The notes under the pieces were generated by a model. That model made no database searches. It saw nothing but the letters and a program-made list of their open reading frames with translations, and was not told where the DNA came from. Position numbers and translations under genes: made by a program. A DNA stretch of 64,000 bases. Source: Bacteroidota bacterium. GTDB lineage: Bacteria > Bacteroidota > Bacteroidia > AKYH767-A > OLB10. Position 1 is the stretch's first letter; every line of letters begins with the position of its first letter. Below are positions 3,052 through 29,066 of this stretch, in pieces. Location of the stretch: assembly GCA_029547265.1 (NCBI GenBank), contig JAKPPP010000426.1, positions 9,206 to 73,205 on the forward strand, written 5' to 3'.

Positions 3052-4395
3052 ATGGCAACAACAGAACAACCACAACTTGAGCGTAAGCTTGGACTTTTCC
3101 AGAGCACGGTCATTAATATGATTGATATGGTAGGTATTGGTCCTTTTGTAGTTCTATCGATTGTAATACAACTCATGGGTGGACCATGGTTTCTCTATGC
3201 ATGGCTTGCAGGAGCCTTATTATCAATAATAGATGCAATGATTTGGTCGGAATTAGGAGCAGCTTTCCCCTTGGCCGGAGGAAGCTTCAATTTCTTAAGA
3301 GCATCGTATGGCGAAAAATCGTGGGGCAAACTCTTTTCATTCTTATATGTATGGCAAACCATGCTTCAAGCTCCTTTGGTTGTTGCCAGTGGGGCTATTG
3401 GATTTGCTCACTACTTTGGATTTTTAGTACCATTAAATGATGTTACATCACGAATAGTATCAGGAACTATTGTGATAGTACTAACGTTACTGTTATACCG
3501 AAAAATAGAAACCATTGGAAAAATCAGTATTCTTTTATGGAGTGGAGTAATTTTTACAATGTTGTGGATTATTTACGGTGGGATCAGCAACGGACATTTC
3601 ACTGAACCACTAAGGCATATTAACGATGGATTTACACTTAATGCTGCCTTTGCTGCAGCTTTAGGCGCGGCATCGGTTAAAACTATTTACAGCTATTTGG
3701 GATATTATAACGTTTGCCATTTAGGGGGAGAAATTAAAAATCCTTCGCGGAATATTCCTTTAAGTATGATCCTTTCTGTATTAGGAATTGCAGCACTTTA
3801 TATTTCAATGAACATGAGTGTGGTAAGTGTTATTCCTTGGCAAGAAGCAGCGAAATCAGAATTTGTGGTGAGTACCTATTTCGAAACACTTTACGGACAT
3901 AATGCAGCAATCATTGCAACCATTTTAATTCTGTGGGTAGCTTTTGCGAGTTTATTTGCCGTGATGCTGGGATATTCACGAGTACCTTATGCGGCGGCTA
4001 AAGAAGGAGAATTTTTTGAAGTATTTGCAAAGGTTCATCCTACCCGACATTTTCCTCATATTGCACTATTAGGATTAGGCATCACCGCATTTGTATTTAG
4101 TTTACTTTTTAAATTATCACAAGTCATAACTGCAATATTAGCTATGAGAATCGTAATACAATTTATTGGGCAAGCGATAGGATTAATAATACTAAGAAAG
4201 AAAAACAAAACTGTAATGCCATTTAAGATGCCTCTTTACCCTCTACCAATAATTTTAGCCATTTTAATTTGGGGCTTTATATTTATCTCCACAGGAAAAG
4301 AATTTATTTTGTCGGGAGGAATAGTAATAATTAGCGGGACGATAGTATATTTGATCAAATCGAAAAAGAGCCTTCAATGGCCATTCAACCAATAA
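3052..4395 (+). CDS. APC-superfamily amino acid permease
   Basis: Highly hydrophobic, roughly 12 TM segments, APC-like pattern. I prefer the ATG at 3052 (MATTEQ...) over the TTG at 3034 in the ORF track. A near-consensus TAttTTcG sits at 3039-3046. Confidence 0.8.
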   Translation: MATTEQPQLERKLGLFQSTVINMIDMVGIGPFVVLSIVIQLMGGPWFLYAWLAGALLSIIDAMIWSELGAAFPLAGGSFNFLRASYGEKSWGKLFSFLYVWQTMLQAPLVVASGAIGFAHYFGFLVPLNDVTSRIVSGTIVIVLTLLLYRKIETIGKISILLWSGVIFTMLWIIYGGISNGHFTEPLRHINDGFTLNAAFAAALGAASVKTIYSYLGYYNVCHLGGEIKNPSRNIPLSMILSVLGIAALYISMNMSVVSVIPWQEAAKSEFVVSTYFETLYGHNAAIIATILILWVAFASLFAVMLGYSRVPYAAAKEGEFFEVFAKVHPTRHFPHIALLGLGITAFVFSLLFKLSQVITAILAMRIVIQFIGQAIGLIILRKKNKTVMPFKMPLYPLPIILAILIWGFIFISTGKEFILSGGIVIISGTIVYLIKSKKSLQWPFNQ

Positions 4396-4396
4396 T

Positions 4397-4425
4397 AAAG
4401 CGCCCCGAAAATATCGGAGCGCTTT
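4397..4425. terminator. Bidirectional hairpin terminator between convergent genes
   Basis: AAAGCGCCCCG / CGGAGCGCTTT stem (one C.A mismatch) with a 7-nt loop, flanked by A and T runs. It lies between the permease stop (4395) and the stop of the minus-strand repeat-protein gene (4441). Confidence 0.6.
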
Positions 4426-4440
4426 ATTTATTTAGAATAT

Positions 4441-6564
4441 CTATTTATCCTTTAATTGCTTCCTCAAGTTTTGCAATTCGAGACTATAGATACTTTCCGA
4501 CATACTAGCGCTATTTTTAAAGTAGAAAACACCACCGTAACTATAAGTTACTTTCAAGTAAGTAGCCTGTATGTCTTTTGATTTGACAATAGTTCGAATT
4601 ATTGTTCTGTTTGGTTCAGTTATAGTTTCATCTTTGATACCATCGGGAACAAACTGTTTATCGAAATCTATTCGATAAGCACTAATATCATTAGGATTCT
4701 TTTTGGGTTGTGCTTGTGTAGCGCCACCTGAAGCTAAAGCTTTCTTTTGATCTTCGATCTCTTTCATTTTCTTAGCTTCAACTGCATCTTCTTCCTTACG
4801 CTTTTGTTCTAAAGCAAGCTTAGCATTTTCTTCTTCTTGTTTCTTTCTAACTGTTTCGAGGGAATCTTTCATTGCTTTAATTCTCTCTTCACGAGCAAGC
4901 ATTTCAATTCTGTTTTTCTCAGCAACTGTTGCCAATGAATCTTGACGAGATTTTTCGCGAACGCGAGCCAACGAATCGGCTGTAGCCTTAGCTTGTGCTT
5001 GTCGAGCTATTTCAGCTAAACGAGCTTGTTCCTTGGCGGTTGCTAATGAATCGGCAGTAGCTTTTGCTCTCGCAGCTTTCGCCAATTCATCCTGACGAGC
5101 TTTTTCCTTTGCTGCAGCTAAAGCATCTTGCTCTTCTTTCGCTTTCACTTTAGCAAGTGAATCAGCTGTAGCTTTTATTTGTGCTTGACGAGCTATTTCC
5201 GCTAAACGAGCTTGCTCTTTAGCAGTTGCAATTGAATCCGCTGCAGCTTTTTCTCTTTCCGCCTTTGCAATGGCATCTAATCTAGCTTTCTCCTTTGCAG
5301 CTTCTTTGGCTGCCAATTCTTCTTTAGCTTTTACAGTAGCAATAGAATCCGACACTGCCTTTTCGCGAGCTACACGAGCAATTTCTGCCAAACGAGCTTG
5401 TTCTTTAGCAGCAGCTATTGAATCTTGTTTTATTTTATCTTGAACTTTCGCTAATGAATCGGCCGTAGCTTTCTGTCGGGCAGCTAAGGCTAACTCCTCC
5501 TGACGAGCTCTTTCTTTCACTTGAGCTAAAGAATCGGATACTGCTTTTTCGCGAGCAGCTTTAGCCAATTGTTCTTGCTTTAATCGTGCATTAACTTGAG
5601 CAATGGAATCTTGAGCAGCTTTATCGCGAGCGGCTTGAGCTAACTGTTCTTTTTTAACATTATCGAGTGAATCCTGACGAGCTTTTGCTAAAGCAGCTTG
5701 CTCGATACGAAGACGTTCTTTAACTGCTAATAACGAATCCTGGCGCGATTTCTCCACCACCTTAGCTAATGAATCCTGCACAGCTTTTTCACGCGCTAAA
5801 CGAGCCGCTTCTTCTGCTTTGGCTTTCTTTTCAACAGCTGCGATTGAATCACGCTCTGCATTTTGTTTTGCTACCATAGCGGCAGCTATTTGCTGTTGAC
5901 GAGCATTCTCTTTTGATATTGAATCTTGTCGAACTTTTTCTTGTTCAGCTTGAATTTTTTGCAATGCTAGTTGCTTCGCACGAGCATCGGCAATAGAATC
6001 TTGACGAGCTTTCTCTGCAATAGCTTTTTTGGCAGCATCTTGTTTTGCTGCTTCTGCTGCCAACTTCACTTTCACGCTTTCAAGTTCTGTTTTACGTGTT
6101 TTTGAATATTCGGCATCGTAATCAAAATCTTCGTACATATCACTGAACGAAAGCTTCGCTACTGGTTTTTCCGCTTCCTTAGGTTGTTCGGCACCTTCCG
6201 GAGCTTTAAACAAATCCATTTTGAACTTAAAGCTAAAAATTTGCTTTTTGTAATCATCAGGAACTTTAGTATCAATAATTACCGATTTAGTAAAGCTTCC
6301 GTTCTTAGAGAAAACGATGGTATAATCATGTCCCAATTCAAGATTGATGATAAATTTTCCACCGGCAGAAGAAAGTACATTATCGACATTTTCATTACCC
6401 TTGAAAATTTTAATATCGGCACCTTCAAGACCTTTACTGTCTTGTAATACCGACCCGACAACTTCGAGGTATCCCTCTTGCTGAGCGAATGCGGAATAAG
6501 ACCCCATAAGCAGGCAAAAGACTACCATCAATTTAATTAAACGCATAGAGAAAGAAATATTCAT
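4441..6564 (-). CDS. Secreted repeat protein: signal peptide, CarboxypepD_reg-like beta-sandwich, ~440-aa Ala/Lys/Glu/Gln-rich DS(I/L)A repeat region, small C-terminal domain
   Basis: 707-aa ORF. Signal peptide LMVVFCLLMGSYSAFAQ, then GYLEVVGSVLQD...YTIVFSKNGSFTKSVIIDTKV, then long low-complexity helical repeats. C-terminus YRIDFDKQFVPDG...VTYSYGGVFYFKN. Confidence 0.8.
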   Translation of the reverse strand: MNISFSMRLIKLMVVFCLLMGSYSAFAQQEGYLEVVGSVLQDSKGLEGADIKIFKGNENVDNVLSSAGGKFIINLELGHDYTIVFSKNGSFTKSVIIDTKVPDDYKKQIFSFKFKMDLFKAPEGAEQPKEAEKPVAKLSFSDMYEDFDYDAEYSKTRKTELESVKVKLAAEAAKQDAAKKAIAEKARQDSIADARAKQLALQKIQAEQEKVRQDSISKENARQQQIAAAMVAKQNAERDSIAAVEKKAKAEEAARLAREKAVQDSLAKVVEKSRQDSLLAVKERLRIEQAALAKARQDSLDNVKKEQLAQAARDKAAQDSIAQVNARLKQEQLAKAAREKAVSDSLAQVKERARQEELALAARQKATADSLAKVQDKIKQDSIAAAKEQARLAEIARVAREKAVSDSIATVKAKEELAAKEAAKEKARLDAIAKAEREKAAADSIATAKEQARLAEIARQAQIKATADSLAKVKAKEEQDALAAAKEKARQDELAKAARAKATADSLATAKEQARLAEIARQAQAKATADSLARVREKSRQDSLATVAEKNRIEMLAREERIKAMKDSLETVRKKQEEENAKLALEQKRKEEDAVEAKKMKEIEDQKKALASGGATQAQPKKNPNDISAYRIDFDKQFVPDGIKDETITEPNRTIIRTIVKSKDIQATYLKVTYSYGGVFYFKNSASMSESIYSLELQNLRKQLKDK
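4920..5430 (-). repeat. In-frame 186-nt (62-aa) higher-order tandem repeat, about 2.7 copies, inside the repeat-protein gene
   Basis: The plus-strand string CGAGC(T/A)ATTTC(A/C/T)GC(T/C)AAACGAGCTTG recurs at 5003, 5189 and 5375, exactly 186 nt apart. It encodes AKEQARLAEIAR three times. Outer boundaries are approximate. Confidence 0.7.
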
Positions 6565-7496: not shown

Positions 7497-7523
7497 CAAA
7501 AAGAACCCGTTGATATCAACGGG
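7497..7523 (-). terminator. Rho-independent terminator after the DUF4920 gene
   Basis: Palindrome CCCGTTGATATCAACGGG (7506-7523), followed on the minus-strand transcript by UUCUUUUUG. Confidence 0.5.
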
Positions 7524-7547
7524 CTCTCACAATATTCTTTTTAATAA

Positions 7548-8051
7548 TTATTTGATGATTACACCGTCAGCTTCGAATGAAAGTTCCACTTTAGGCTCAG
7601 TGATTTTATTGATTTCCGCCTCTGATAAACCCTCGTCTTGTGCATAGTGACGAAGATCTTCTACAGAAGTAGTATCCATATAAGCCTTACCAGAAAACAC
7701 TGCTGTTTTTCCACCTGATGATTTAGGAACGAAGAAACCATAATCTTTAAATGTAACTCGCATTCCGGTTCCGTCACCTTTATCGATATTCATCCAACAT
7801 CCTTTTGTCTGGCAACATTCAGTTACTTTTCCTGTAACTTTCACTCCTGAAATTTCACCTTTTGCAGAACTCATCATTGCAACCAATGAATCCATTCCAA
7901 TCGCTCCGGCTTCATCAATTTTAGCTCCGAAATTTCCTGTTTCAGTGGTAGCTGCAGCAGCTTCCTGATTACCTTCTTTAGTTTCTGATTTCTGTCCGCA
8001 AGAGGCTAACCCTAACATTGCGATAGCAAAAATGGCTGTTAATTTTTTCAT
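7548..8051 (-). CDS. DUF4920-like lipoprotein
   Basis: Lipobox LGLASC, and the KVTGKVTECCQTKGCWMNI motif that I associate with DUF4920. Confidence 0.6.
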   Translation of the reverse strand: MKKLTAIFAIAMLGLASCGQKSETKEGNQEAAAATTETGNFGAKIDEAGAIGMDSLVAMMSSAKGEISGVKVTGKVTECCQTKGCWMNIDKGDGTGMRVTFKDYGFFVPKSSGGKTAVFSGKAYMDTTSVEDLRHYAQDEGLSEAEINKITEPKVELSFEADGVIIK

Positions 8052-9234: not shown

Positions 9235-9906
9235 ATGCAGCAACATACTGAAACGGAAGAAAACTACTTAAAGGCCATTTATCACCTTTCTAACGTGACT
9301 ATCAGTTCCGTCAATACTTCATCGATTGCTACTTCTATGTCGACTACATCGGCATCGGTAACCGATATGCTTAAAAAGTTGGCGGATAAGGAATTGATTA
9401 ATTACGAAAAATACAAAGGCGTTAAAATCACTCGTAAGGGTGAAAAAGTAGCTTTAAATATTATTCGTAAGCATCGATTATGGGAGGTGTTTTTAACGAA
9501 GGTTTTGAAGTTTGAATGGGACGAAGTGCATACTATGGCCGAAGAATTAGAACATGTGAGCAGCGACGAACTTATAAAGCGACTTGAAGCTTATCTCGAC
9601 TTTCCAAAATTTGATCCACATGGCGATCCTATTCCTGATCAAACAGGTAAACTTGAAATAAATGATCAGATGTCGCTTTCGAGTGGAGATGCCGGTGTAA
9701 AATATACTATCACAGGAGTTGGAGAACATAGCTCTGCGTTTCTAAAGCATCTAGCTAAATACGGATTAAAGCCGGGTATAACGGTAAGCATAGCCGAAAT
9801 AATGGAATTTGACAAAAGCATGCTAGTGAAAGTAAATAAAGAAAAATTCCATCTCAGTCTTGAAGTTTCTAAAAACATATTGGTAAAGAAATATGGAATC
9901 ATTTAA
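9235..9906 (+). CDS. DtxR/MntR-family metal-dependent transcriptional repressor with C-terminal FeoA/SH3-like domain
   Basis: TEENYLKAIYHL N-terminus, winged-helix region, RKHRLWEVFL dimerisation helix and a C-terminal FeoA-like domain. It overlaps the transporter gene by 14 nt. Confidence 0.85.
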   Translation: MQQHTETEENYLKAIYHLSNVTISSVNTSSIATSMSTTSASVTDMLKKLADKELINYEKYKGVKITRKGEKVALNIIRKHRLWEVFLTKVLKFEWDEVHTMAEELEHVSSDELIKRLEAYLDFPKFDPHGDPIPDQTGKLEINDQMSLSSGDAGVKYTITGVGEHSSAFLKHLAKYGLKPGITVSIAEIMEFDKSMLVKVNKEKFHLSLEVSKNILVKKYGII

Positions 9907-11770
9907 CAGTTCATCATTATCGGAAGTTCATGGCACGGTACATATAAAGCCCGGAATGAGCTTCAAGAAAAAACTTTTGGCCTTTATTGGTCCCGCTTAT
10001 ATGGTTAGTGTTGGCTATATGGATCCGGGTAATTGGGCAACTGATATAGCAGGAGGAAGTCAATTTGGATATAAGCTCATTTGGGTATTATTAATGTCGA
10101 ATTTAATGGCATTATTACTCCAAGGATTAAGTGCCCGTCTAGGCGTTGTTCGCGGAAGAGATCTTGCACAAGCGTCTAGAGAGTTATATCCTAAATATAT
10201 TAATTACTATCTATATATTTTAGCTGAAATTGCGATTGCAGCTTGCGATTTAGCCGAAGTATTGGGAATGGCCATTGGATTAAAACTCCTCTTTAATATT
10301 CCGCTTTTATGGGGAGTAGTCATTTGTGCATTCGACACCTTCCTCCTATTATTTCTTTTACATTACGGAATTCGCAAAATGGAAGCATTTATCATTTCAT
10401 TAGTTGCGATGATAGGATTAGCTTTCATTGCTCAAATGTTTATGGCGAATCCTTCAGTAACTGAAATTGCGGGAGGATTTATTCCTTCCCTACCGAATTC
10501 CGCAGCCTTATATATTGCAATCGGAATTATTGGTGCCACCGTAATGCCTCACAATTTGTATTTGCATTCGGCTTTAGTGCAGACGAGAAAATTCGAGAGA
10601 ACACCTTCTGAAATAAGAACTGCATTACGATTCAATTTCATAGATAGCGGTATTGCGTTGAACATGGCATTTTTTGTGAATGCTGCAATTTTAATTCTAG
10701 CAGCATCCGTATTTCATAGTAATGGTAAATATGATGTAGCGGATATTATGGATGCACATCGACTTTTAGAACCATTATTAGGGAGTAAATTAGCTCCTGC
10801 GCTGTTTGCGATTGCGTTAATCTGCGCCGGACAAAGCTCAACCATCACCGGAACATTAGCGGGACAAATTGTAATGGAAGGATATTTAAACTTGAGAATA
10901 GCTCCTTGGATTAGAAGAATTATCACGCGATTTGTTGCCATTACCCCTGCCCTTATCACCATTCACTATATGGGAGAAGAAGGAACAGGAAAACTATTAA
11001 TTCTTTCGCAGGTAATATTGAGTTTACAACTAGGATTTGCTGTAATTCCTTTGATTCACTTCGTAAGTGATCAAGAAAAAATGAAAGAATTTGTAATACC
11101 TCGATATGTGCAATTCGCGTCGTGGTTATGCGCAGCAATCATTGTTGGACTTAACATCAAACTTGTTGTTGATCAAATTAATGATTGGCTAACCGAATAC
11201 CCCGGTAATTCAATGATACAGTTTGTAGTAATTCCACTTACTATATTAAGTGGAGTTATTCTTCTTTACATTACGTTTATGCCATTATTTGTTTCTTCTC
11301 CGGGACGAAAAATTGCAATTCCTCATGGCGACTTTTTATCGTTCGATGAAAATGCTGCTAAGGTTCCTTCACGAATAGCCATCGCATTAGATTTCACTAA
11401 AACCGACGAAGAAGTTCTTCCTCAAGCCTTACATCAAGGAGGTAAACAAGCCACTTATATGTTGATGCACATTTCAGAAACAGCTGCAGCCTTACTACTG
11501 GGACGAGAAACACGAGATTATGAAAGTCAATTAGACCGCGAAAATTTAAAGAAGTACAAAGAATACCTAGAAAAATTAGGATACACTTGTGAAGTAAAAA
11601 TGGGATATGGAAGTCCACGAAAGGAAATTCCACGCCTCACCAAAGACTTTAACGCTGAATTATTAGTGATGGGTGCTCACGGACATAAAGCTTTAAAAGA
11701 TATTATTCTAGGCTCCACTATTGATGCAGTGCGACATAAATTAAATATTCCCATTCTGGTAGTTCGTTGA
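9893..11770 (+). CDS. mntH: Nramp-family divalent metal (Mn2+/Fe2+) transporter fused to a C-terminal universal stress protein (USP) domain
   Basis: GPAYMVSVGYMDPGNWATDIAGG and ATVMPHNLYLHS Nramp signatures cover about 440 aa. An extra TM segment follows, then about 140 aa of USP fold ending VMGAHGHKALKDIILGST, which matches G-2x-G-9x-G-S/T. Confidence 0.85.
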   Translation: MESFNSSSLSEVHGTVHIKPGMSFKKKLLAFIGPAYMVSVGYMDPGNWATDIAGGSQFGYKLIWVLLMSNLMALLLQGLSARLGVVRGRDLAQASRELYPKYINYYLYILAEIAIAACDLAEVLGMAIGLKLLFNIPLLWGVVICAFDTFLLLFLLHYGIRKMEAFIISLVAMIGLAFIAQMFMANPSVTEIAGGFIPSLPNSAALYIAIGIIGATVMPHNLYLHSALVQTRKFERTPSEIRTALRFNFIDSGIALNMAFFVNAAILILAASVFHSNGKYDVADIMDAHRLLEPLLGSKLAPALFAIALICAGQSSTITGTLAGQIVMEGYLNLRIAPWIRRIITRFVAITPALITIHYMGEEGTGKLLILSQVILSLQLGFAVIPLIHFVSDQEKMKEFVIPRYVQFASWLCAAIIVGLNIKLVVDQINDWLTEYPGNSMIQFVVIPLTILSGVILLYITFMPLFVSSPGRKIAIPHGDFLSFDENAAKVPSRIAIALDFTKTDEEVLPQALHQGGKQATYMLMHISETAAALLLGRETRDYESQLDRENLKKYKEYLEKLGYTCEVKMGYGSPRKEIPRLTKDFNAELLVMGAHGHKALKDIILGSTIDAVRHKLNIPILVVR

Positions 11771-12260: not shown

Positions 12261-13298
12261 TTATTTTAGGAAGTCGCCGAAGTTAGTACTGATAGTAAAG
12301 TGATTACTTCCATCGAATGGTACGTACACGCTTTTAGCGTACGAAAACTGAAACTTACTAATTTTAAATCCTACACCTGCAGTCACTCCCGCAAGGCCTT
12401 TCTTCTCCGACAAAGCCAATTCCTTACGGCGTAAGAAATTATATCCTAATCTAACATTAAAATTCTTAGTGAATAAAACTTCCACATTCAATATTGCATG
12501 ACGGATTAATTTATCACCAAGAGTAATATTCTCTACTTTATTCTCTCCTGTCAATGGATCAATTCCATTTTGATTAGGGTCTTTGTAAGTAATATCGAAT
12601 TTCTGCAACTGTTGACCGATTAACGAAAATCTGAAAGGTGCATTCAACAACTTCTTTGATATTCCTGCTTGAATTTCAAAAGGTAAATCTTCTTTCTCTG
12701 CTCCATCATATTTCTTTAATTGAGTACCGAAATTCTTCGCTACCAAAGTTGCACAGAATAACTTATCGGGATTATAATAAGTCAATGCAACATCTGCAGC
12801 CACTCCGTTAGAAGTATTTCCCTGACCCATATTAGAGAAAATTCCCTTTAAGGTAGTTCCGATATAAAGGTTGCTGTCGAGGGCTTTACTCCAAGTCACT
12901 CCTACTGCATTTTCACTTGCTTTAAAACTGCCGATTTCCATGCTGGTTTCATCGGTTTCTTTAAAGGTTCCATAATTCACGAAATGGAGAAACCCCGCAA
13001 TGGTCCCAAATTTATTTAAGTTATGAGCGTAGATAACATCTCCAAACTTAATTCCTGCTACATGACCGACGTAGCTGATAGAAAGCTGACGATGCATGTA
13101 CGGCTGTAACTGCGAAGGATTCTGCAGTACCAATGATACATCGTCAGCATGTGTTGCAATTGCATTACCGCCTAATCCTGCGGAACGCGCGGGACTAACG
13201 AGATTTAAAAACTCAAACGTATTATTCCCACCCGACTGCCCGTAAACGACAGCAGATGAAAAAACAAACAGAAGAATTGCGAAATATTTAAATCTCAT
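12261..13298 (-). CDS. porQ: Type IX secretion system outer-membrane protein, PorQ-like
   Basis: 345 aa. Signal peptide, then GGNNTFEFLNLVSPARSAGLGGN, the N-terminal motif I associate with PorQ, followed by a beta-barrel-like alternating pattern ending in F-L-K. Confidence 0.6.
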   Translation of the reverse strand: MRFKYFAILLFVFSSAVVYGQSGGNNTFEFLNLVSPARSAGLGGNAIATHADDVSLVLQNPSQLQPYMHRQLSISYVGHVAGIKFGDVIYAHNLNKFGTIAGFLHFVNYGTFKETDETSMEIGSFKASENAVGVTWSKALDSNLYIGTTLKGIFSNMGQGNTSNGVAADVALTYYNPDKLFCATLVAKNFGTQLKKYDGAEKEDLPFEIQAGISKKLLNAPFRFSLIGQQLQKFDITYKDPNQNGIDPLTGENKVENITLGDKLIRHAILNVEVLFTKNFNVRLGYNFLRRKELALSEKKGLAGVTAGVGFKISKFQFSYAKSVYVPFDGSNHFTISTNFGDFLK

Positions 13299-19970: not shown

Positions 19971-22900
19971 ATGAAAAAATTATTAACGCTTTTACTCCTA
20001 TTCTTTACAATAGGGGTAGTTGACAGCTATGGATCTCACCTGATGGGAGGTGAAATCACATGGATATGCCAACGCACCGGGCCTAATACGGGTCGGTTTA
20101 AATTTACGGTAAAGCTTTACCGTGACTGTAACGGAATCTCAGCGCCTCCGTCTGTATCCTTATCATCAAATGCGCCAGGCTTGGGGGGTGGCGTGTTTTG
20201 TAATCAGGTTTCGGTATTAGACTTATCTCCTGTTGGGCCGGGTTGTCCAACATGTGCAGTTCCCGGAGGAAAACCCAATGCCGTGCTCGAATGTATTTAC
20301 GAGTCATCGTTTATTAATATCACCGGAGTACCACCTGCAACAGGTTGGTATTTTTCATATTCAGATTGTTGTAGAAATGGAGTAACAAATCTGGCAAATA
20401 CTGGATCAGGATATTTTACTTTAAGAGCATTGATGTTTCCATATAATGCTACAAACACTAATCCATGTTACGATAATTCACCACGTTTCGCTGAGCGTCC
20501 TCAATTGGCGACAATGATTGGTAATCTTACCACTTATTCTGCCAACGCAGTTGATGAAGATGGTGATTCATTACACTATGATTGGGGACAACCATTAGAC
20601 GGGTCATCATTTGCATCAAGTACAAATTATCCGTTTGCTGCTAATTATACTTATCAAACACCTTTACCAAATCCTATACAAAATCCATTAAACCAATCAG
20701 CAACATTAGATCCCAATTCAGGTACTGTTACTTTCACTCCGTTCACAGTTGGATCATTTGTAACTGTTACTAAAGTTAGCTCATTTCGTTGCGGGATAAA
20801 AATTGCAGAAGTATATCGAGAAATTCAAATTTCGTTATTACCGAGTGTAATTGTTGCTAATAACACCGGTTTAACTATTGGTAATACCCCTCCGGATATT
20901 AATGCAGTTGTACTACCACCCTCTTTTCAATCTTATGGAGTAAATCAATTTGTGGATACCGTATTTGCGGGGGATACGGTAAAACTGCCAATAACTGCCT
21001 ATGATTTTGAGCATGTCACAACAAATCCCACTTCTGCATTTCAATCTGTTTCATTCGACGTAACGGGAATAGAATTAGATGCAACGGAGACAGCGAATAC
21101 AGGCGCATGCCCATTTGCACCTTGTGCATATGTTGATAAAGCCGTACCAACTCCTTACACAATTGCTGCCGCCTCGATTCAATTTAATTGGGTTACTGAC
21201 TGTAATCACTTAGCAAAAACTGTAGGATGTATTAGTTTAAAGAATACTTATAATTTCGTTGTAAAAGCACTTGACAATTTCTGTCCTTCGCCATCGGTAA
21301 ACTTCTACACCTTCTCCATAGTTGTAGTTGCCCCTCCGGAAATGGATCCGTCGCTAATTTATTGTGCAGATGTTCAATCCAATGGAAATGTTACTTTAAC
21401 ATGGGATATTCCATCTGATACGGGAGTAGTTGATACAAATAAATATTTCCATAAACATTACATCTATCGTTCTGTTGCAAATGGTCCGTTTGCACTACTC
21501 GATAGCGATAGCGTAATAACTAATTTATCGTATACTGATTTAACGGCTAATGCAAATACAGGTTCAATCCGTTATTATTTGGAAACAAAATCAGGATGTG
21601 ATTTAAGAGCACGTCAACAATCGGATACCATATCAACAATGTTTTTGCAAGTTTCTCAAGTAGGAACTAATGCAAGTTTAACGTGGAATCCACTAGATGT
21701 TCCAAATCCAATAGGATCTCATAGTAAATATTATATCTATAAAGAAACTCCTGTAGGATCAGGGACATTTGTATTGCTTGATTCAACATCAGCAACAACA
21801 TATTTAGATCCTGTAACCGTATGTAATGACTCAATCAATTACTATATTCGTTTACATAACGACATTAGAAATTGTGATTCAAAATCAAATATTGAAGGTG
21901 CACAATTACAAGCTGCAGCACCGGTAATAAATCCTCCATCACTAAGATGTGTTAGTGTATTGCCAAATGAAGATATTCAAATCAGCTGGGTAGGAACTAC
22001 CGATACCGCATCATATTTTAGTAGCTACGAAGTATATCATTCATTAAGTTTAGGAGGACCTTATACATTAGTGGGATCAGTAACTAACTATGCGGCCAAT
22101 ACTTTCACTCATGTTGGAGCACAGGGAAATTCACAACCTCATTACTATCATGTAACTACAAAAGCAGGATGTGATGCTACAACAGTTACTGAATCAACTA
22201 CAACATCAGCCAACCTTTGTTCAATGAAATTAAACTTGAACAATGCAAATGTCGGATTTGCAGATTTAACTTGGAATGCTATTAGTACTCCTCTTCCTGC
22301 TACTTCAGTTGGATTGTATTCTGTTTACAGACGAGTAACGCCAACGGTTGCATGGACTTTAAGAGGTACTACTGCTAACTTAACCTTTAGAGATACAGTA
22401 ACTCTTTGCGATACTATTATTGAATATAAAGTTACTATTGATGATGCATCAGGATGCATTTCCACATCATCAGATTCAGCAGCTCGATTCACTTCACAAG
22501 GAGATATTATTGCGAATCCATCTTTAAGATGTTTAGCGGTTCAAGCAAATGGTGATGTACAATTATCTTGGTTAGCGCCAAGTGATCCTGATAATTTCTT
22601 CTCTAAATATGAAGTGTATTCATCATCAAATGCCGCAGGCCCTTTTACCTTAGTAGGTACAGTTAATACTTACAATGCAGGTGGATTTCTTCATACCGGA
22701 GCCGGCGCAAATTCAGGAAGTAAATATTATTATGTAAAAACCTATTCAGGATGTACAGGTTTAGCGGACAATGGTAGTACTAGCGATACATTAAAAACAA
22801 TGTATCTAACAGTAAATAACGCTACATTAGGATCTGCTATTCTTACTTGGAATGCTATGCACAATCCTGCATTGCCTAGTGCTGCCGCAACTTATACTAT

Positions 22901-25900
22901 TAAGAAACGAGCAACGGGAGTTGGAGGATATACTACAGTTGGCACTACTTCTAACCTGACTTATACCGACAATATTTCTGTATGTAATGATCCGTTAGAA
23001 TATATTGTAGAATTAACTGATAACGCTCCGTGTACTTCAGTTTCTTCTGCTGCAAATGCAACCTTCACCTACTTAGGAAATGTTATCAATAATCCTGATT
23101 TAAGATGTCTTAGCGTTCAAAATAACGGACAAATACTATTATCGTTTATTCCTCCTGCAGGTGCTTCAACCAACTTCAACGAATATGAAATTTGGAGAGA
23201 TGACGGAACTGGATTTGTGAAATATGATTCCGTTTCAACATTTGGTGCGTTAAATTATACTGACATTAATGCAAACGGTAATAACCAATCATATAGCTAT
23301 TACATGTTATCTCAGTCGGGTTGTACCGGACAAGTTAACAGTTTAGCTAACTCACAAACTTTAAGTTCAATTTACTTAACTACCACTCCGGTTCTAGGAC
23401 AAGCTAACTTAAATTGGACTGGTTTAGCAGCAACTATCCCTGTAACTAGTACAACAGGACAATATGATATCTATTCTTCTTATAATGCAGGAGGTTCATT
23501 GCAATTGTATGGAGATACAAATAAGTTAGTTTACTCTCAGCCGATTGTAAATTGCGATACTACATTACGTTACCAAATCAAATTAGTAGATAATAGCGGA
23601 TGCGTATCAACTTCAAATGTTGATACAAACGACTACACGTATATTGGTAACATCATTAACAATCCTGATTTACGATGCGTAAGTGTTCAAAACAACGGAC
23701 AAATCGTACTGAATTATCTTGCTCCATCGGGTTCATCGGCCGATTTCAATGAATATGAAATCTGGAGAGATAACGGAACAGGTTATGTGAAATACGATTC
23801 AATTTCAACGTTTGGAAACGGATCTTATACAGATATCTCGGCGAATGGAAATAATCAGTCGTACGGTTATTACATGTTGACCCAATCGGGTTGTACCGGA
23901 CAAGTTAACAGTGCTTCGAATTCGCAAACGTTAAATTCAATTTACTTAACAACTACACCTGTACTTGGTCAAGCAAATCTAAATTGGACTGCGCTAACCA
24001 CACCTATTCCAGTAACGAGTACAACTGGTCAGTATGATATATTCTCATCATATAATGCAGGAGGAAGTTTACAATTATATGGAGACACAAACAAATTGGT
24101 GTATTCTCAACCGATTTCTAACTGTGATACAACATTACGCTACCAAATCAAATTGGTAGATAATAGTGGATGTATTTCAACATCAAATGTTGACACTAAC
24201 GATTATACATACATAGGTAATGTCATTAATAATCCTGATTTACGATGTGTAAGTGTTCAGAATAACGGACAAATCGTATTAAATTATCTTGCTCCATCAG
24301 GCTCATCAGCCGATTTCAATGAATTTGAAATATGGAGAGATAATGGAGCAGGTTATGTGAAATACGATTCAGTTTCAACATTTGGAAACGGAACCTATAC
24401 AGATATCAATGCGAACGGTAATAACCAATCCTATGGTTATTACATGTTGACACAATCAGGTTGTACAGGACAAGTAAACAGCACATCGAACTCACAAACA
24501 TTAAATTCGATTTATTTGACAACTTCTCCTGTTCTAGGGCAAGCGAATTTAAATTGGACTGCATTATCGACCCCTATTCCTGCAACTAGTACTACGGGAC
24601 AGTATGACATTTATTCATCATACAATTCAGGTGGTAGTTTGCAATTATATGGCGACACTAACAAATTGGTGTATTCCCAACCTATATCAAACTGTGATAC
24701 AACATTACGCTACCAAATTAAATTAGTCGATAATAGCGGGTGTATTTCAACATCGAATGTTGACACCAACGATTATACATACATTGGAAATGTAATTAAC
24801 AATCCGGATTTACGATGCGTGAGTGTTCAGAACAACGGACAAATCTTGTTGAACTTTATTCCTCCTGCAGGCTCATCGGCCGATTTCAATGAATTTGAAA
24901 TTTGGAGAGATAACGGTGCGGGATATGTGAAATATGATTCTATTTCAAGTTACACTGCTACTACTTACACAGATATCAATGCGAATGGAAATACCCAAAC
25001 GTATGGATACTATATGTTAACGCAATCGGGTTGTACAGGACAAGTAAACAGTGCCTCAAATTCGCAATCATTAAATTCTATTTATTTAACGACTACTCCT
25101 GTACTAGGGCAAGCGAATTTAAATTGGACGGCCTTATCTACTCCTATTCCTGCTACAAGTACTACGGGACAGTATGATATTTATTCATCATACAATTCAG
25201 GTGGTAGTTTACAATTATTTGGTGACACTAACCAATTGTTATATTTCCAGCCGGTTTCTAACTGTGATACTACACTACGCTACCAAATTAAATTAGTAGA
25301 TAATAGCGGATGTATTTCAACATCAAATGTTGATACAAACGACTATACCTATATAGGTAATGTAATTAATAATCCGGATTTACGATGCGTGAGTGTTCAG
25401 AATAATGGCCAAATTCTATTGAACTTTATTCCTCCGGTAGGATCATCAACTGATTTCAACGAATTTGAAATTTGGAGAGATAATGGAACGGGATATGTGA
25501 AATATGATTCTATCTCAAACTACTCAGCTACAACATACACAGATATTAATGCGAATGGAAATAACCAATCGTATGGATATTACATGTTAACGCAGTCAGG
25601 ATGTACAGGACAAGTAAATAGTGCATCGAATTCGCAATCATTAAATTCGATTTACCTGACTTCAACACCGGTACTTGGACAAGCGAATTTAAATTGGACG
25701 GCGTTATCGAGCCCATTACCGGGGACAAGTGTTACCGGTCAATATGACATTTTTACGTCTTACAATGCTTCAGGAAACCTTCAAATTTTAGGCGACACGA
25801 ATCAATTAGTGTACTTTGAAGGAATCAATAACTGCGACACAACATTACGTCATCAAGTTAAAGTGACAGACAATAGCGGTTGCGTATCTGTATCGAATGT

Positions 25901-28900
25901 CGACACTAATTTATTTACGTATATCGGAAATGTAATTAACAATCCTGATTTACGTTGCGTAAGTGTACAAAGCAACGGTCAAATTGAATTGAGTTTCATT
26001 CCTCCTAGTGGATCCAATATAAACTTCAATGAATATGAAATTTGGAGAGATAATGGTACCGGATATGTGAAATACGACTCTGTATCGACATTTGGAGCTG
26101 TAAATTATACGGATATAAATGCCAACGGAAACAATCAATCATACGGATATTATATGTTAACACAATCGGGTTGTACCGGGCAAGTTAACAGTACGTTGAA
26201 TTCGCAATCATTAAATTCGATTTACTTAACCACAACACCTGTATTAGGAACTGCGAATTTAAATTGGACAGCATTATCATCTCCATTACCGGGAAGCAGT
26301 ACAACAGGTCAATACGATGTATACTCATCTTATAATTCTGCAGGCACGCTTCAATTCTTCGGTGACACGACTCAATTAGTATATTCACAACCTATTCAAA
26401 ATTGTGATACTACTTTAAGATATCAAATTAAAGTAGTTGACAACAGTGGGTGTATTTCAACTTCAAATGTTGACACTAACCTATATACATATATCGGAAA
26501 TGTGATTGACAATCCAGAGATGAGATGTGTAACTGTAAATTCACCTAGCGGACAAACACAATTAACTTGGGTTAACCCAACTCCAACAAGTTGGATTAAC
26601 TTCAACCAATACGACTTATACCGAAACACCGGATCTGGATTTACATTGATTGACTCAGTTCAATCGAATGGTATTACTAGCTATACTGATGTAAATGCAA
26701 ACGGATATAACGGTTCAGTAAGTTACTACTTGGTTACAAAATCGGGTTGTACCGGTAAAGTAGACAATGGAACGTTAGGTAACGCAATTAGTTCACTCTA
26801 CCTAAAAGTAACCGGAGGAAATACAACAACGGCAACTTTAAATTGGAATGCACCATCAAACCCATTATTACCTACCTCATCGGGTAGTTATTTAGTGGAA
26901 CGCCAACAACCTGCCGGAACAGGAACATGGACGACAGCTGCTAACGTAACCACAACATCATTTACTGAGCCATTAACATTATGTATCGATTCAGTAAACT
27001 ATAGAGTTAGTATAAATGATAATATTGGATGTACATCAATGTCGAATTATGATGGAGAAACATTTGTAGATCATACAATACCGGTTTCGCCTTCATTAAG
27101 ATGTGCATCGGTTCAAACTAACGGAGATGTAGTATTAAATTGGGTTGCACCTGTAGATACCGGAATGAAGTTCGGCAGCTATTTGATTTACTCATCGAAT
27201 AATGTGAATGGGCCATTCAATGCAATTCAAAACATCACAAATTACAATACAACAACCTACACACATGTTGGTGCTAATGCTCAAAATCAAAGTGTATATT
27301 ATTACATTTTAACAAAAACAGCATGCGGAGGTGAAGTATCACCTGTATCTGACACATTAAAAACAATGAAAGTTAATGTGATTAATAATAACGGAGTCGC
27401 AGTTATCAGATGGAATCCATTACATGACCCTGAATTAAGCACAGCTACTCAGTCATATAATGTACACAAAGAATACCCAACCGGAGTATGGAATGTAATT
27501 GGAACTACAACTGCTCCTGATTATATTTGGTATGATACGATTAACGTTTGTTCGGCAATAATTAATTACTTTGTTTCAACCGGAGATGCTTTAGGATGCG
27601 GATCAAATTCATCAACTGATGGGGACTTATTCAAAGACATCACTAAACCGACAGTTTCGTTACTTGATACCGTTAGTATTGATACTGCAACACAAAGTAT
27701 AGTATCTATAAGCTGGTTGCCTAGCCCTAGCGGTGATGTTGAAGGATATATCTTATATCATTTCAATGGAGCTTCATGGGATTCAATCGGATCTGTTTAT
27801 GGAATAAACACTAATAGCTTCCAAATTACTGACCCTTCAGTTCAATCGGGGCCACAACTTTATAGCATTACTGCTTATGATAGCTGCTTAAACAGAAGTA
27901 ATATTGGATCTGCACATTCTACTCTATTCCTCAAAGCGAAATTGGATGTATGTAAATATGCCATCGACTTACAATGGAATCCGTATATTAATATGGTTGG
28001 AGGTATATCTCAATACAATATATATGCTTCAGAAAATGGAGGACCATTTACACTTTTGGCAAGCGTTCCTTCAAACAATATTACTTATAGCCATAATACG
28101 TTAAACAATCATTCTTATTATTGTTACTATGTACAAGCTGTAGGAAATGTAGCCGGAAGAACATCAACATCAACTAGAGCATGTGCTACCGCAGATCTAT
28201 TAACTTTGCCAACTTACGGATATGTTAGAAAGGCTACAGTAATAGACGATCGACGAGTACTTGTTACAGCTTATGTAGACACAACAGATCAACCTGATGT
28301 AAGTAAATACAAATTGCAGCGCGCTTTCGATAAAGGAGGTCCGTTTACAACTGTAGGAGTTCAATCATACACTGGAAATCCGGATTTAACATTTGCTGAT
28401 TTCACTGCCAGAACTGATCAGTATAGCTACTACTACCGACTAGTTACAGTTGATTCATGTGGGAATGAAGTACTGAAAAGTAACATGGCTAGAACGATCT
28501 TATTGAGCGGTCAGGCACGATACAACCTAACCAATGAATTGAAATTCAATGATTACAGTGAATGGTTAGGAGGAGTAAACAACTATGCATTGTTTAGAAA
28601 AGTTGATGATGTTTGGCAAACAGCTCCTGCAGCTATTCTGCCTTTTGGACAACAAACGTATATGGATGATGTGTCATCAATTTACCAAACATCAGGTAAA
28701 TTCTGTTATCGAGTTGAAGCTTATGAAGGTGCCGGAAATATGTATGGGTACACAGATACAAGCTCATCGAATGAATTCTGTTTAATTCAAGAACCTCATT
28801 TGTTTGTGCCAACTGCATTTACTCCCGGAGGTAAAAACACCATATTTAAGCCTGAATATATCTTCATTGATGCTAAAAACTACTTCTTTGTAGTATTTAA

Positions 28901-29066
28901 TAGATGGGGACAAAAAGTATATGAATCACGAGTTCCGGGCGAAGGCTGGAACGGTGAATTTGATGGTAAAATCGCTCCTGAAGGGACGTATGTGTACACA
29001 GTTCGAATTTTTGGTACCAACGGTCAGGAGATTGAAAAGAGCGGATCCGTAACTCTGTTGCGGTAA
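19971..29066 (+). CDS. Giant cell-surface repeat protein with T9SS type-B (gliding-motility-associated) C-terminal sorting domain
   Basis: 3,031 codons from the ATG at 19971 (MKKLLTLLLLFF signal peptide; the track's TTG at 19956 adds 5 aa). The C-terminus FTPGG...VVFNRWGQKVYES...GWNGEFDG...GTYVYTV...GSVTLLR fits the type-B CTD pattern. The body is made of reiterated Ig/FN3-like modules. Confidence 0.9.
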   Translation: MKKLLTLLLLFFTIGVVDSYGSHLMGGEITWICQRTGPNTGRFKFTVKLYRDCNGISAPPSVSLSSNAPGLGGGVFCNQVSVLDLSPVGPGCPTCAVPGGKPNAVLECIYESSFINITGVPPATGWYFSYSDCCRNGVTNLANTGSGYFTLRALMFPYNATNTNPCYDNSPRFAERPQLATMIGNLTTYSANAVDEDGDSLHYDWGQPLDGSSFASSTNYPFAANYTYQTPLPNPIQNPLNQSATLDPNSGTVTFTPFTVGSFVTVTKVSSFRCGIKIAEVYREIQISLLPSVIVANNTGLTIGNTPPDINAVVLPPSFQSYGVNQFVDTVFAGDTVKLPITAYDFEHVTTNPTSAFQSVSFDVTGIELDATETANTGACPFAPCAYVDKAVPTPYTIAAASIQFNWVTDCNHLAKTVGCISLKNTYNFVVKALDNFCPSPSVNFYTFSIVVVAPPEMDPSLIYCADVQSNGNVTLTWDIPSDTGVVDTNKYFHKHYIYRSVANGPFALLDSDSVITNLSYTDLTANANTGSIRYYLETKSGCDLRARQQSDTISTMFLQVSQVGTNASLTWNPLDVPNPIGSHSKYYIYKETPVGSGTFVLLDSTSATTYLDPVTVCNDSINYYIRLHNDIRNCDSKSNIEGAQLQAAAPVINPPSLRCVSVLPNEDIQISWVGTTDTASYFSSYEVYHSLSLGGPYTLVGSVTNYAANTFTHVGAQGNSQPHYYHVTTKAGCDATTVTESTTTSANLCSMKLNLNNANVGFADLTWNAISTPLPATSVGLYSVYRRVTPTVAWTLRGTTANLTFRDTVTLCDTIIEYKVTIDDASGCISTSSDSAARFTSQGDIIANPSLRCLAVQANGDVQLSWLAPSDPDNFFSKYEVYSSSNAAGPFTLVGTVNTYNAGGFLHTGAGANSGSKYYYVKTYSGCTGLADNGSTSDTLKTMYLTVNNATLGSAILTWNAMHNPALPSAAATYTIKKRATGVGGYTTVGTTSNLTYTDNISVCNDPLEYIVELTDNAPCTSVSSAANATFTYLGNVINNPDLRCLSVQNNGQILLSFIPPAGASTNFNEYEIWRDDGTGFVKYDSVSTFGALNYTDINANGNNQSYSYYMLSQSGCTGQVNSLANSQTLSSIYLTTTPVLGQANLNWTGLAATIPVTSTTGQYDIYSSYNAGGSLQLYGDTNKLVYSQPIVNCDTTLRYQIKLVDNSGCVSTSNVDTNDYTYIGNIINNPDLRCVSVQNNGQIVLNYLAPSGSSADFNEYEIWRDNGTGYVKYDSISTFGNGSYTDISANGNNQSYGYYMLTQSGCTGQVNSASNSQTLNSIYLTTTPVLGQANLNWTALTTPIPVTSTTGQYDIFSSYNAGGSLQLYGDTNKLVYSQPISNCDTTLRYQIKLVDNSGCISTSNVDTNDYTYIGNVINNPDLRCVSVQNNGQIVLNYLAPSGSSADFNEFEIWRDNGAGYVKYDSVSTFGNGTYTDINANGNNQSYGYYMLTQSGCTGQVNSTSNSQTLNSIYLTTSPVLGQANLNWTALSTPIPATSTTGQYDIYSSYNSGGSLQLYGDTNKLVYSQPISNCDTTLRYQIKLVDNSGCISTSNVDTNDYTYIGNVINNPDLRCVSVQNNGQILLNFIPPAGSSADFNEFEIWRDNGAGYVKYDSISSYTATTYTDINANGNTQTYGYYMLTQSGCTGQVNSASNSQSLNSIYLTTTPVLGQANLNWTALSTPIPATSTTGQYDIYSSYNSGGSLQLFGDTNQLLYFQPVSNCDTTLRYQIKLVDNSGCISTSNVDTNDYTYIGNVINNPDLRCVSVQNNGQILLNFIPPVGSSTDFNEFEIWRDNGTGYVKYDSISNYSATTYTDINANGNNQSYGYYMLTQSGCTGQVNSASNSQSLNSIYLTSTPVLGQANLNWTALSSPLPGTSVTGQYDIFTSYNASGNLQILGDTNQLVYFEGINNCDTTLRHQVKVTDNSGCVSVSNVDTNLFTYIGNVINNPDLRCVSVQSNGQIELSFIPPSGSNINFNEYEIWRDNGTGYVKYDSVSTFGAVNYTDINANGNNQSYGYYMLTQSGCTGQVNSTLNSQSLNSIYLTTTPVLGTANLNWTALSSPLPGSSTTGQYDVYSSYNSAGTLQFFGDTTQLVYSQPIQNCDTTLRYQIKVVDNSGCISTSNVDTNLYTYIGNVIDNPEMRCVTVNSPSGQTQLTWVNPTPTSWINFNQYDLYRNTGSGFTLIDSVQSNGITSYTDVNANGYNGSVSYYLVTKSGCTGKVDNGTLGNAISSLYLKVTGGNTTTATLNWNAPSNPLLPTSSGSYLVERQQPAGTGTWTTAANVTTTSFTEPLTLCIDSVNYRVSINDNIGCTSMSNYDGETFVDHTIPVSPSLRCASVQTNGDVVLNWVAPVDTGMKFGSYLIYSSNNVNGPFNAIQNITNYNTTTYTHVGANAQNQSVYYYILTKTACGGEVSPVSDTLKTMKVNVINNNGVAVIRWNPLHDPELSTATQSYNVHKEYPTGVWNVIGTTTAPDYIWYDTINVCSAIINYFVSTGDALGCGSNSSTDGDLFKDITKPTVSLLDTVSIDTATQSIVSISWLPSPSGDVEGYILYHFNGASWDSIGSVYGINTNSFQITDPSVQSGPQLYSITAYDSCLNRSNIGSAHSTLFLKAKLDVCKYAIDLQWNPYINMVGGISQYNIYASENGGPFTLLASVPSNNITYSHNTLNNHSYYCYYVQAVGNVAGRTSTSTRACATADLLTLPTYGYVRKATVIDDRRVLVTAYVDTTDQPDVSKYKLQRAFDKGGPFTTVGVQSYTGNPDLTFADFTARTDQYSYYYRLVTVDSCGNEVLKSNMARTILLSGQARYNLTNELKFNDYSEWLGGVNNYALFRKVDDVWQTAPAAILPFGQQTYMDDVSSIYQTSGKFCYRVEAYEGAGNMYGYTDTSSSNEFCLIQEPHLFVPTAFTPGGKNTIFKPEYIFIDAKNYFFVVFNRWGQKVYESRVPGEGWNGEFDGKIAPEGTYVYTVRIFGTNGQEIEKSGSVTLLR
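21345..27086 (+). repeat. Zone of ten consecutive ~190-195-aa coding modules, each starting (N)P(x)(L/M)(R/I)(Y)C; an eleventh begins at about 27090
   Basis: Module anchors lie at about 21345, 21929, 22515, 23091, 23661, 24231, 24801, 25371, 25941, 26511 and 27090. Each module has four conserved Cys and two Trp-centred halves. Outer modules are diverged. Confidence 0.75.
23088..26507 (+). repeat. Six near-identical in-frame tandem repeats of exactly 570 bp (190 aa)
   Basis: The NNPDLRC codons start at 23088, 23658, 24228, 24798, 25368 and 25938, and the next (diverged, DNPEMRC) module starts at 26508. The period is exactly 570 nt each time. Many differences between copies are at third codon positions. 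Confidence 0.9.

Follow-up and report, generated by a model that had tools for sequence, protein, structure and literature searches.

The general O-glycosylation system of the Bacteroidota modifies non-cytoplasmic proteins at the sequon D-(S/T)-(L,I,V,T,A,S,M), in which the aspartate before the modified serine or threonine is needed and glutamate is not tolerated in Bacteroides fragilis (review PMC12871550). The sites are generally occupied close to fully, engineered or foreign sequons are glycosylated as well, and the function of the modification is largely unknown, as its transferase still is (PMC12871550). In the characterised glycoproteomes a glycoprotein has about two sites on average, with a maximum of 10 in Prevotella intermedia, where DS(L/I/V) is the strongly preferred form of the sequon (PMC10897501). 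Here we describe a gene from a 64,000-nucleotide (nt) stretch of DNA of an uncultured Bacteroidota bacterium (GTDB lineage Bacteroidia; AKYH767-A; OLB10; contig JAKPPP010000426.1, positions 9,206 to 73,205; below, the window). It encodes a protein of 707 amino acids (aa), P0001, in which 17 sequons are arrayed in a long helical spacer between two end domains. It seems rather probable that P0001 is a helical rod or tether, located in the periplasm and glycosylated, and that it represents an undescribed Bacteroidia family of N-domain, long spacer and C-domain. While the glycosylation system is known, we did not find this substrate family, the two end domains or a periodic, helix-phased array of 17 sequons described in the literature.

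DS[IL] occurs exactly 17 times in the spacer of P0001, at spacings of 12, 21, 22, 25 and 37 residues, of which 25 is the commonest, and beside these stand three degenerate D[AE][IL]A units that have lost the serine and kept D and I/L. This amounts to 17 sequons in 381 residues, or 2.5 per 100 aa of the mature protein. An initial reading of the DNA from its letters (the sequence-only reading) had pointed out a recurring DS(I/L)A motif in a long helical spacer of A, K, E, Q, R, D, S and L, and both parts of this description hold, since these residues make up 85% of positions 166-625 and helix is predicted over 151-609. Over 5000 shuffles of the spacer, DS[IL] came up 0.86 +/- 0.90 times, and never more than 5 times. 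The super-repeat in the DNA at 4973-5424 (Table 1) shows that the array grew by tandem duplication, and recently.

The sequon statistics of the family were collected from 62 full-length relatives out of 80 loci, in which the number of sequons per protein ranges from 0 to 29 with a median of 16. Over the whole proteins 913 of 1000 D[ST] dipeptides belong to an allowed sequon, and within the spacers the share is 98%, the next residue being A, I, L, V, M or T. The third residues of the sequons are I (366), L (355), T (109), V (47), A (22) and M (14). Before S[IL]A there is Asp in 422 cases and Glu in 3, despite Glu being twice as frequent in the spacers, and the x of D-x-[IL]-A is Ser in 422 cases and Ala in 44, despite Ala being five times commoner. 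The D and S of the sequon are among the few invariant columns in the family alignment. Discrimination this sharp between Asp and Glu would not be expected of a purely structural or helical motif.

The sequon was also examined over the assembly to which the window belongs, in which 2921 open reading frames (ORFs) were called and sorted by a crude signal-peptide and transmembrane heuristic. Its observed-to-expected ratio was 1.71 in ORFs with a signal peptide, 1.36 in membrane ORFs and 1.00 in cytoplasmic ones, and no compartment bias was seen for the control motifs E[ST]h, N[ST]h and the reversed motif. With 17 sequons against 1.8 expected, P0001 surpasses the others of the 15 most sequon-rich ORFs in this ratio, and by density it comes third in the genome. 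That the Asp-Ser punctuation could mark a register for modification had been raised in the sequence-only reading, and it now appears the best-supported interpretation, as DS(I/L) is the established O-glycosylation sequon of the phylum and the motif behaved as such a sequon in each sequence test made here.

The reading frame of P0001 is open on the minus strand only, the plus-strand translation being riddled with stops. Read on this strand, which had been left unstated before, the N-terminus MNISFSMRLIKLMVVFCLLMGSYSAFA|QQ has the proposed signal peptide, with a basic n-region (R8/K11), a hydrophobic core at residues 12-24 and an AxA site with Gln behind it. The homologs share this layout of n-region, h-region and AxA, most of them with A-Q at the cleavage point, and Gln at +1 of signal peptidase I (SPase I) substrates is known as the Bacteroidetes Q-rule (PMC5837995). 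By this heuristic reading, P0001 is a Sec-exported protein with a signal peptide of SPase I type.

In an AlphaFold2 (AF2) model built on an alignment of 24 sequences, the N-domain (residues 30-150) is a seven-stranded prealbumin-like beta-sandwich with a predicted local distance difference test score (pLDDT) of about 90, for which Foldseek gave matches to transthyretin, CnaB and CarboxypepD_reg-like folds and to the SusC NTE domain (PDB, E 1e-5 to 1e-3). The CarboxypepD_reg-like sandwich suggested earlier is thus supported in its fold; its size of about 85 aa had been set too small, because two extra strands (136-149) pack onto the sandwich. At the end of the domain, F147, D150 and Y153 are invariant in the family alignment. 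The Pfam model PF13620 (CarboxypepD_reg) stays below threshold for the whole protein (E=0.013) and for the isolated N-domain (E=0.0014), at 16-19 bits against a gathering cut-off of 32.3, and is present in the precomputed Pfam annotation of some homologs. This weak match was the only one in whole-protein searches of Pfam, NCBIfam and PDB sequences. The globular C-terminal domain of the sequence-only reading was recovered with a pLDDT of 91 and a predicted template modelling score (pTM) of 0.80 when modelled alone, as five strands and a helix with the motif ..Y.K(V/I).Y.(Y/W)GG(V/I)(F/Y)(Y/F)(F/Y)KN. It has no match in Pfam, NCBIfam, the PDB (sequence profile) or BFVD, and Foldseek searches of its model against the PDB and BFVD gave nothing below E=0.06, the top match being to partial SMC-head strands; it is an undescribed domain. 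No peptidoglycan-binding domain (OmpA_C, SPOR, LysM, SLH) was recognised in P0001 with Pfam and NCBIfam, and none of their models for the C-terminal domain (CTD) of the type IX secretion system (T9SS) matches it, though CHU_C and Por_Secre_tail are readily found in neighbouring proteins. The earlier impression that the end domains match neither TolA and OmpA nor a T9SS component agrees with these Pfam, NCBIfam and PDB searches, which gave no peptidoglycan-binding family for them either.

Table 1. Features of the P0001 gene and its surroundings, in positions of the window.
Feature	Position	Strand	Remarks
Whole ORF, 707 aa (P0001)	4441..6564	-	stop codon at 4441-4443 included
Signal peptide, residues 1-27	6484..6564	-	predicted SPase I cut AFA|QQ, Gln at +1; read from sequence, A-Q here in most homologs
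N-domain, residues 30-150	6115..6477	-	transthyretin/CarboxypepD_reg-like beta-sandwich with conserved two-strand extension ending in F-D-Y-D..Y motif
Helical spacer, residues 151-609	4738..6114	-	Ala/Lys/Glu/Gln/Arg-rich; from AF2 helices, composition and i,i+4 pairs
Array of 17 D-S-(I/L) O-glycosylation sequons, residues 189-569	4858..6000	-	
Higher-order tandem repeat, 186 nt (62 aa)	4973..5424	-	2.4 copies, 74% identity, within sequon array
Low-confidence linker, residues 610-640	4645..4737	-	AF2 pLDDT <50 at 611-638
C-domain, residues 641-707	4444..4644	-	five beta-strands and C-terminal helix; AF2 pLDDT 91
HMGL-like gene, 286 aa	6628..7488	-	directly 5' of family gene, 63-nt gap; PF00682 E=1e-21
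Terminator-like hairpin AAAGCGCTCCG / CGGGGCGCTTT then ATTATT	4391..4425	-	16 nt past stop codon; by eye, not listed by consensus scan
Terminator-like hairpin	7501..7528	-	between DUF4920 gene and HMGL-like gene

Across the family the commonest spacings between sequons are 25, 18, 22, 32 and 29 residues. At a period of 3.5-3.6 residues these spacings keep a common phase, with R=0.48 where the null reaches at most 0.13. Sequence relatedness inflates this value, but the pattern is broad, so the sequon serines would line up on one side of a helix. The helix segments of the AF2 model lie at 151-266, 292-435 and 447-609, separated by two points of low confidence. In the spacer large hydrophobic residues make up 17%, i,i+4 pairs of base to acid are enriched (z=7.6), and in the global spectrum of hydrophobicity the peaks fall on 12.6 residues with its harmonics and not on 3.5, while the spacing of the sequons is helix-phased. 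We read the scarcity of large hydrophobics, the charge pairs and the 12.6-residue periodicity as favouring a rod stabilised by salt bridges over a classical coiled coil. As a single helix, 459 residues would measure ~65-70 nm, and the periplasm is believed to be narrower than this. With such a length, and with positional orthologs of about 565 to 935 aa of which some have an ER/K spacer, the idea of an envelope-spanning ruler, as the sequence-only reading had put it, is not upheld.

In the reading that we favour, P0001 would be exported by Sec and cleaved after A27 by SPase I, and would become a soluble envelope protein that is most likely periplasmic, a location assumed by default, given that P0001 lacks a lipobox, a barrel and a T9SS CTD. 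While the chain emerges unfolded from Sec, up to 17 of its serines would receive the oligosaccharide of the species from the general O-glycosylation machinery, and the chain would then fold into an alpha-helical rod of ~450 residues, with a 12-13/25-residue repeat built around D-S-(I/L). As the spacings of the sequons are in phase, the glycans would stand along one side of the rod like a bottle-brush. The two end domains, which occur almost always together, would dock the rod and make it a bivalent tether or spacer of the envelope. The sequences show the architecture with its modularity, the sequon statistics, the conservation, the distribution and the synteny; what we infer here is the glycan occupancy, the periplasmic location, a single-helix over a bundled state and the role as a tether.

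The full-length homologs of P0001 are all unnamed or 'hypothetical' and come from uncultured Bacteroidota. Relatives are encoded in 126 stretches from one-genome-per-species collections, and the 80 loci that were kept and listed are all from metagenome-assembled genomes, whose sources are activated sludge, lakes or groundwater. Among 1.84 billion proteins, a profile of the C-domain matched 1305 cluster representatives at E<=1e-3. The C-domain ends at most 10 residues from the C-terminus in 149 of the best 150 matches, in host proteins of 60-2282 aa, and the N-domain is found as well in all 35 C-domain proteins of at least 500 aa among these 150. What differs between the same end domains is the spacer, which may be a sequon helix, an A/E/K-rich helix, TPR-like repeats ('YxxAxxLKPxExYPKxQI' arrays, in superfamily proteins up to 2282 aa) or a Pro-rich or Ser/Glu/Lys-rich linker. 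Two paralogs with the same N- and C-domains are present in the genome of the window itself, one of 409 aa with a Pro/Ala/Val-rich, TonB-like spacer (L082, 463-1692, plus strand) and one of 345 aa with a Ser/Glu/Lys-rich spacer (L083, 628-1665, plus strand). Eight positional orthologs, lying directly 3' of the same HMGL-like gene as P0001, have an ER/K helix of EAEAKAKK type with 0-5 sequons and i,i+4 charge pairs at z=12-16. Other arrangements occur in P0075, where the sequon helix stands behind a retropepsin-like protease domain, and in P0073, where the C-domain is found twice in tandem behind a membrane anchor.

A C-domain match was detected in 137 of 146 genomes of the order of the window (104 of the 106 high-quality ones) and in 3 of 300 other genomes of the phylum taken as an even sample, and the family gene is thus near-universal in one uncultured Bacteroidia order. 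A word-based homolog search with the C-domain region alone gave one close relative, the cluster names of 10 superfamily members were uninformative, and a literature search under the name of the lineage found nothing. A metagenomic protein of 767 aa, P0040, has a PorP/SprF outer-membrane barrel, then ~20 helical units of (R/K)(Q/K/R)DS(I/L)A and a weakly SPOR-like C-terminus, an assignment that at E=0.062 is not relied upon. To judge from this sequence, the sequon helix may serve as a periplasmic spacer in another architecture also.

Several observations weigh against a glycosylated rod. In the degenerate D-A/E-(I/L)-A units the serine is gone while D and I/L persist, so these two residues may have a structural role too. 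The extended conserved unit, A-R-E-K-A-(R/V)-(Q/A)-D-S-(I/L)-A-(K/R)-(A/V) with K at -5 conserved to 88%, is longer than the sequon. The sequon serine is the centre of a stripe of Ala (-8, -4, 0, +4, +8) with I/L and A/V beside it, which could be the buried small-residue seam of an Alacoil-type bundle, too tight for a bulky glycan. The AF2 model of the whole protein has a pTM of 0.33, and with the spacer helix split in three at low-confidence points the overall shape is left undefined. As eight positional orthologs have few sequons or none, the glycan array seems not essential to the core function of the family. Finally, the metG-linked LFG locus (wzx and glycosyltransferases, as in Bacteroides) was not found beside metG in a genome of the same genus, where T9SS cargo genes, a PMT_2/TPR protein and an ABC transporter follow metG; in the genome of the window metG is cut by the contig end. 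The seam, the long unit and the persistence of the degenerate units would fit an explanation in which DS(I/L)A is purely structural and sets the register of an antiparallel Alacoil-like or other coiled-coil bundle, in which the ~450-residue region is folded back, the serines are unglycosylated and the match to the sequon is coincidental. It would also be consistent with three long helices with breaks in the AF2 model in place of one and with a phasing of the motif that resembles a coiled-coil register. However, it leaves unexplained why Asp is preferred to Glu in a Glu-rich helix and Ser to Ala in an Ala-rich one at the ratios given above, and why nearly all third residues fall inside the allowed set of the sequon. 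The genome itself enriches the sequon by compartment, and exported sequons are generally occupied (PMC12871550). In addition, the large hydrophobic residues are few and without a global 3.5-residue periodicity, and orthologs substitute an ER/K-type helix, typical of single helices. We consider the structural bundle unlikely, if the most serious of the alternatives.

The constant position of the C-domain at the very end of proteins of very different length could also be understood if P0001 were a fibre of the cell surface or extracellular space and its C-domain a new C-terminal signal for sorting or anchoring, equivalent in a non-canonical way to the T9SS CTD. The genome does use T9SS and its CTDs are recognisable, as can be seen from a 3031-aa CHU_C protein in the same window, but no Pfam or NCBIfam CTD model matches P0001, and the five strands and helix of the C-domain differ from the seven-stranded 3+4 sandwich of known CTDs (PMC11285876). 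Moreover, the C-domain is much better conserved than a usual sorting tag, is coupled to a specific N-domain and is found in tandem behind a membrane anchor in P0073, all of which makes a sorting signal improbable; the reading of P0001 as T9SS cargo was rejected on architecture. On the same ground an energy transducer of TolA or TonB type that spans the envelope is effectively refuted, and we give it hardly any weight. The likeness to TolA domain II that had been noticed holds for the composition of the spacer, one paralog has a TonB-like Pro-rich spacer, and the relative P0055, whose N-domain is similar and whose helical region is A/E/K-rich, is named 'membrane protein involved in colicin uptake' in the database. 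However, the likeness fails in the anchor, where P0001 has a signal peptide of cleavable type in place of an N-terminal membrane anchor, in the absence of a TolA or TonB C-terminal domain (TolA domain III included) from Pfam, NCBIfam and PDB sequence searches, and in the gene context, since tolQR/exbBD are not adjacent and the neighbours are the HMGL-like gene, a DUF4920 gene and pyrD.

As to the machinery that a glycosylated rod would need, a 1052-aa ORF of the genome to which the window belongs matches the TMEM260-like/DUF2723 GT-C family strongly, at E=8e-79 (contig C139:156-686, plus strand), and of 14 control genomes Bacteroides thetaiotaomicron alone has such a gene. Human TMEM260 is a protein O-mannosyltransferase (PMC10214176), and the O-glycan of Bacteroidota starts with a hexose, probably mannose (PMC12871550, PMC10897501), which makes the TMEM260-like protein a candidate for the undiscovered transferase. 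In the genome of the same genus, a 695-aa PMT_2 (GT-C) and TPR protein is encoded ~5 kb from metG (L086, 7282-9369, minus strand), the site of the LFG locus in Bacteroides.

In 65 of 68 loci the gene immediately upstream of the family gene, and on its strand, is the HMGL-like (HMG-CoA lyase-type) one. This holds across relatives down to about 32% identity, at a median gap of about 108 nt, and the adjacency is far better conserved than that of any other neighbour. Farther upstream the conservation drops, with the DUF4920 gene in 32 of 64 loci and pyrD in 23 of 63, and the downstream genes vary. As the two terminator-like hairpins bracket the pair, a two-gene transcript of the HMGL-like and family genes is plausible. 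The link is possible co-transcription only, with no functional rationale evident for pairing the HMGL-like gene with an envelope protein. The DUF4920 gene, two genes upstream, encodes a lipoprotein-like protein (7548-8051, minus strand; PF16267, E=4e-32). Elsewhere in the window, at 9235-11770 on the plus strand, two genes overlap by 14 nt. One is for a metal repressor of DtxR type that has a FeoA domain, the other for an Nramp (MntH) transporter with a universal stress protein (Usp) domain fused to its C-terminus, which is an unusual fusion. The 3031-aa exported protein is encoded at 19971-29066 on the plus strand; its CHU_C domain is a type-B T9SS CTD, and it has 33 dispersed O-glycosylation sequons. 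The ORF at 12261-13298 was considered as PorQ-like and dropped for want of Pfam support.

Known substrates in the glycoproteome literature carry few and scattered sites, whereas here the repeat unit has evolved around the sequon, in helical register and in a gene near-universal in its order. If this reading is true, the glycan would be the point of the protein and not a decoration, and the family would be a natural multi-site substrate with which the still-unidentified transferase could be sought. The family also defines two undescribed domains, of which the C-domain is found in about 1,300 protein clusters, and, with spacers that may be helical, glycosylated, ER/K or Pro-rich exchanged between one set of end modules, it gives a handle on how the envelope of Bacteroidota is built. 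A bolder proposal, which we put forward as speculative and rather doubtful, is that the superfamily constitutes an unrecognised envelope system of uncultured Bacteroidia, in which the members with a sequon helix would be bacterial analogues of mucin or proteoglycan cores, rigid rods of a single helix with about 17 oligosaccharides brushed out along one side. Each rod would dock through its two end domains, which would bind fixed structures of the envelope or one another, and the C-domain, rich in aromatic residues, might be a lectin. The resulting hydrated glyco-matrix would set the spacing or mechanics of the periplasm, with the ER/K helix as a substitute in some lineages.

Compared with the known substrates of Bacteroidota O-glycosylation, such as the S-layer proteins TfsA/TfsB of Tannerella forsythia and the OstA-like protein of P. 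intermedia with its 10 mapped sites, P0001 is likewise exported and has the D-(S/T)-hydrophobic sequon in the preferred form DS(L/I). In contrast to them, its sequons, here putative glycosylation sites, are periodic, placed in a continuous helix and helix-phased. TolA domain II of Proteobacteria is likewise helical, long and rich in Ala/Lys/Glu and likewise part of an envelope protein, but P0001 is without the membrane anchor, domain III and tol context, its end domains are different and its spacer carries sequons. Spacers that are ER/K single alpha-helices (SAH) occur in myosin VI/X and caldesmon. Enriched i,i+4 pairs of opposite charge and a low hydrophobic content are common to these and P0001, and the positional orthologs contain textbook ER/K, whereas P0001 is bacterial, extracytoplasmic and Ala-rich with a periodic D-S-(I/L), and its single-helix state is a proposal. 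Braun's lipoprotein, OmpM and Deinococcus SlpA are coiled-coil connectors of outer membrane and cell wall (PMC10628300, PMC9388160), and the concept is the same, a helical spacer that links two layers of the envelope through terminal binding modules; P0001 is unlike them in having no lipid anchor, beta-barrel or SLH/OmpA/SPOR domain. The sole relative by repeat that comes near to such connectors is the remote P0040, where a PorP/SprF barrel is joined by the repeat to a weakly SPOR-like domain.

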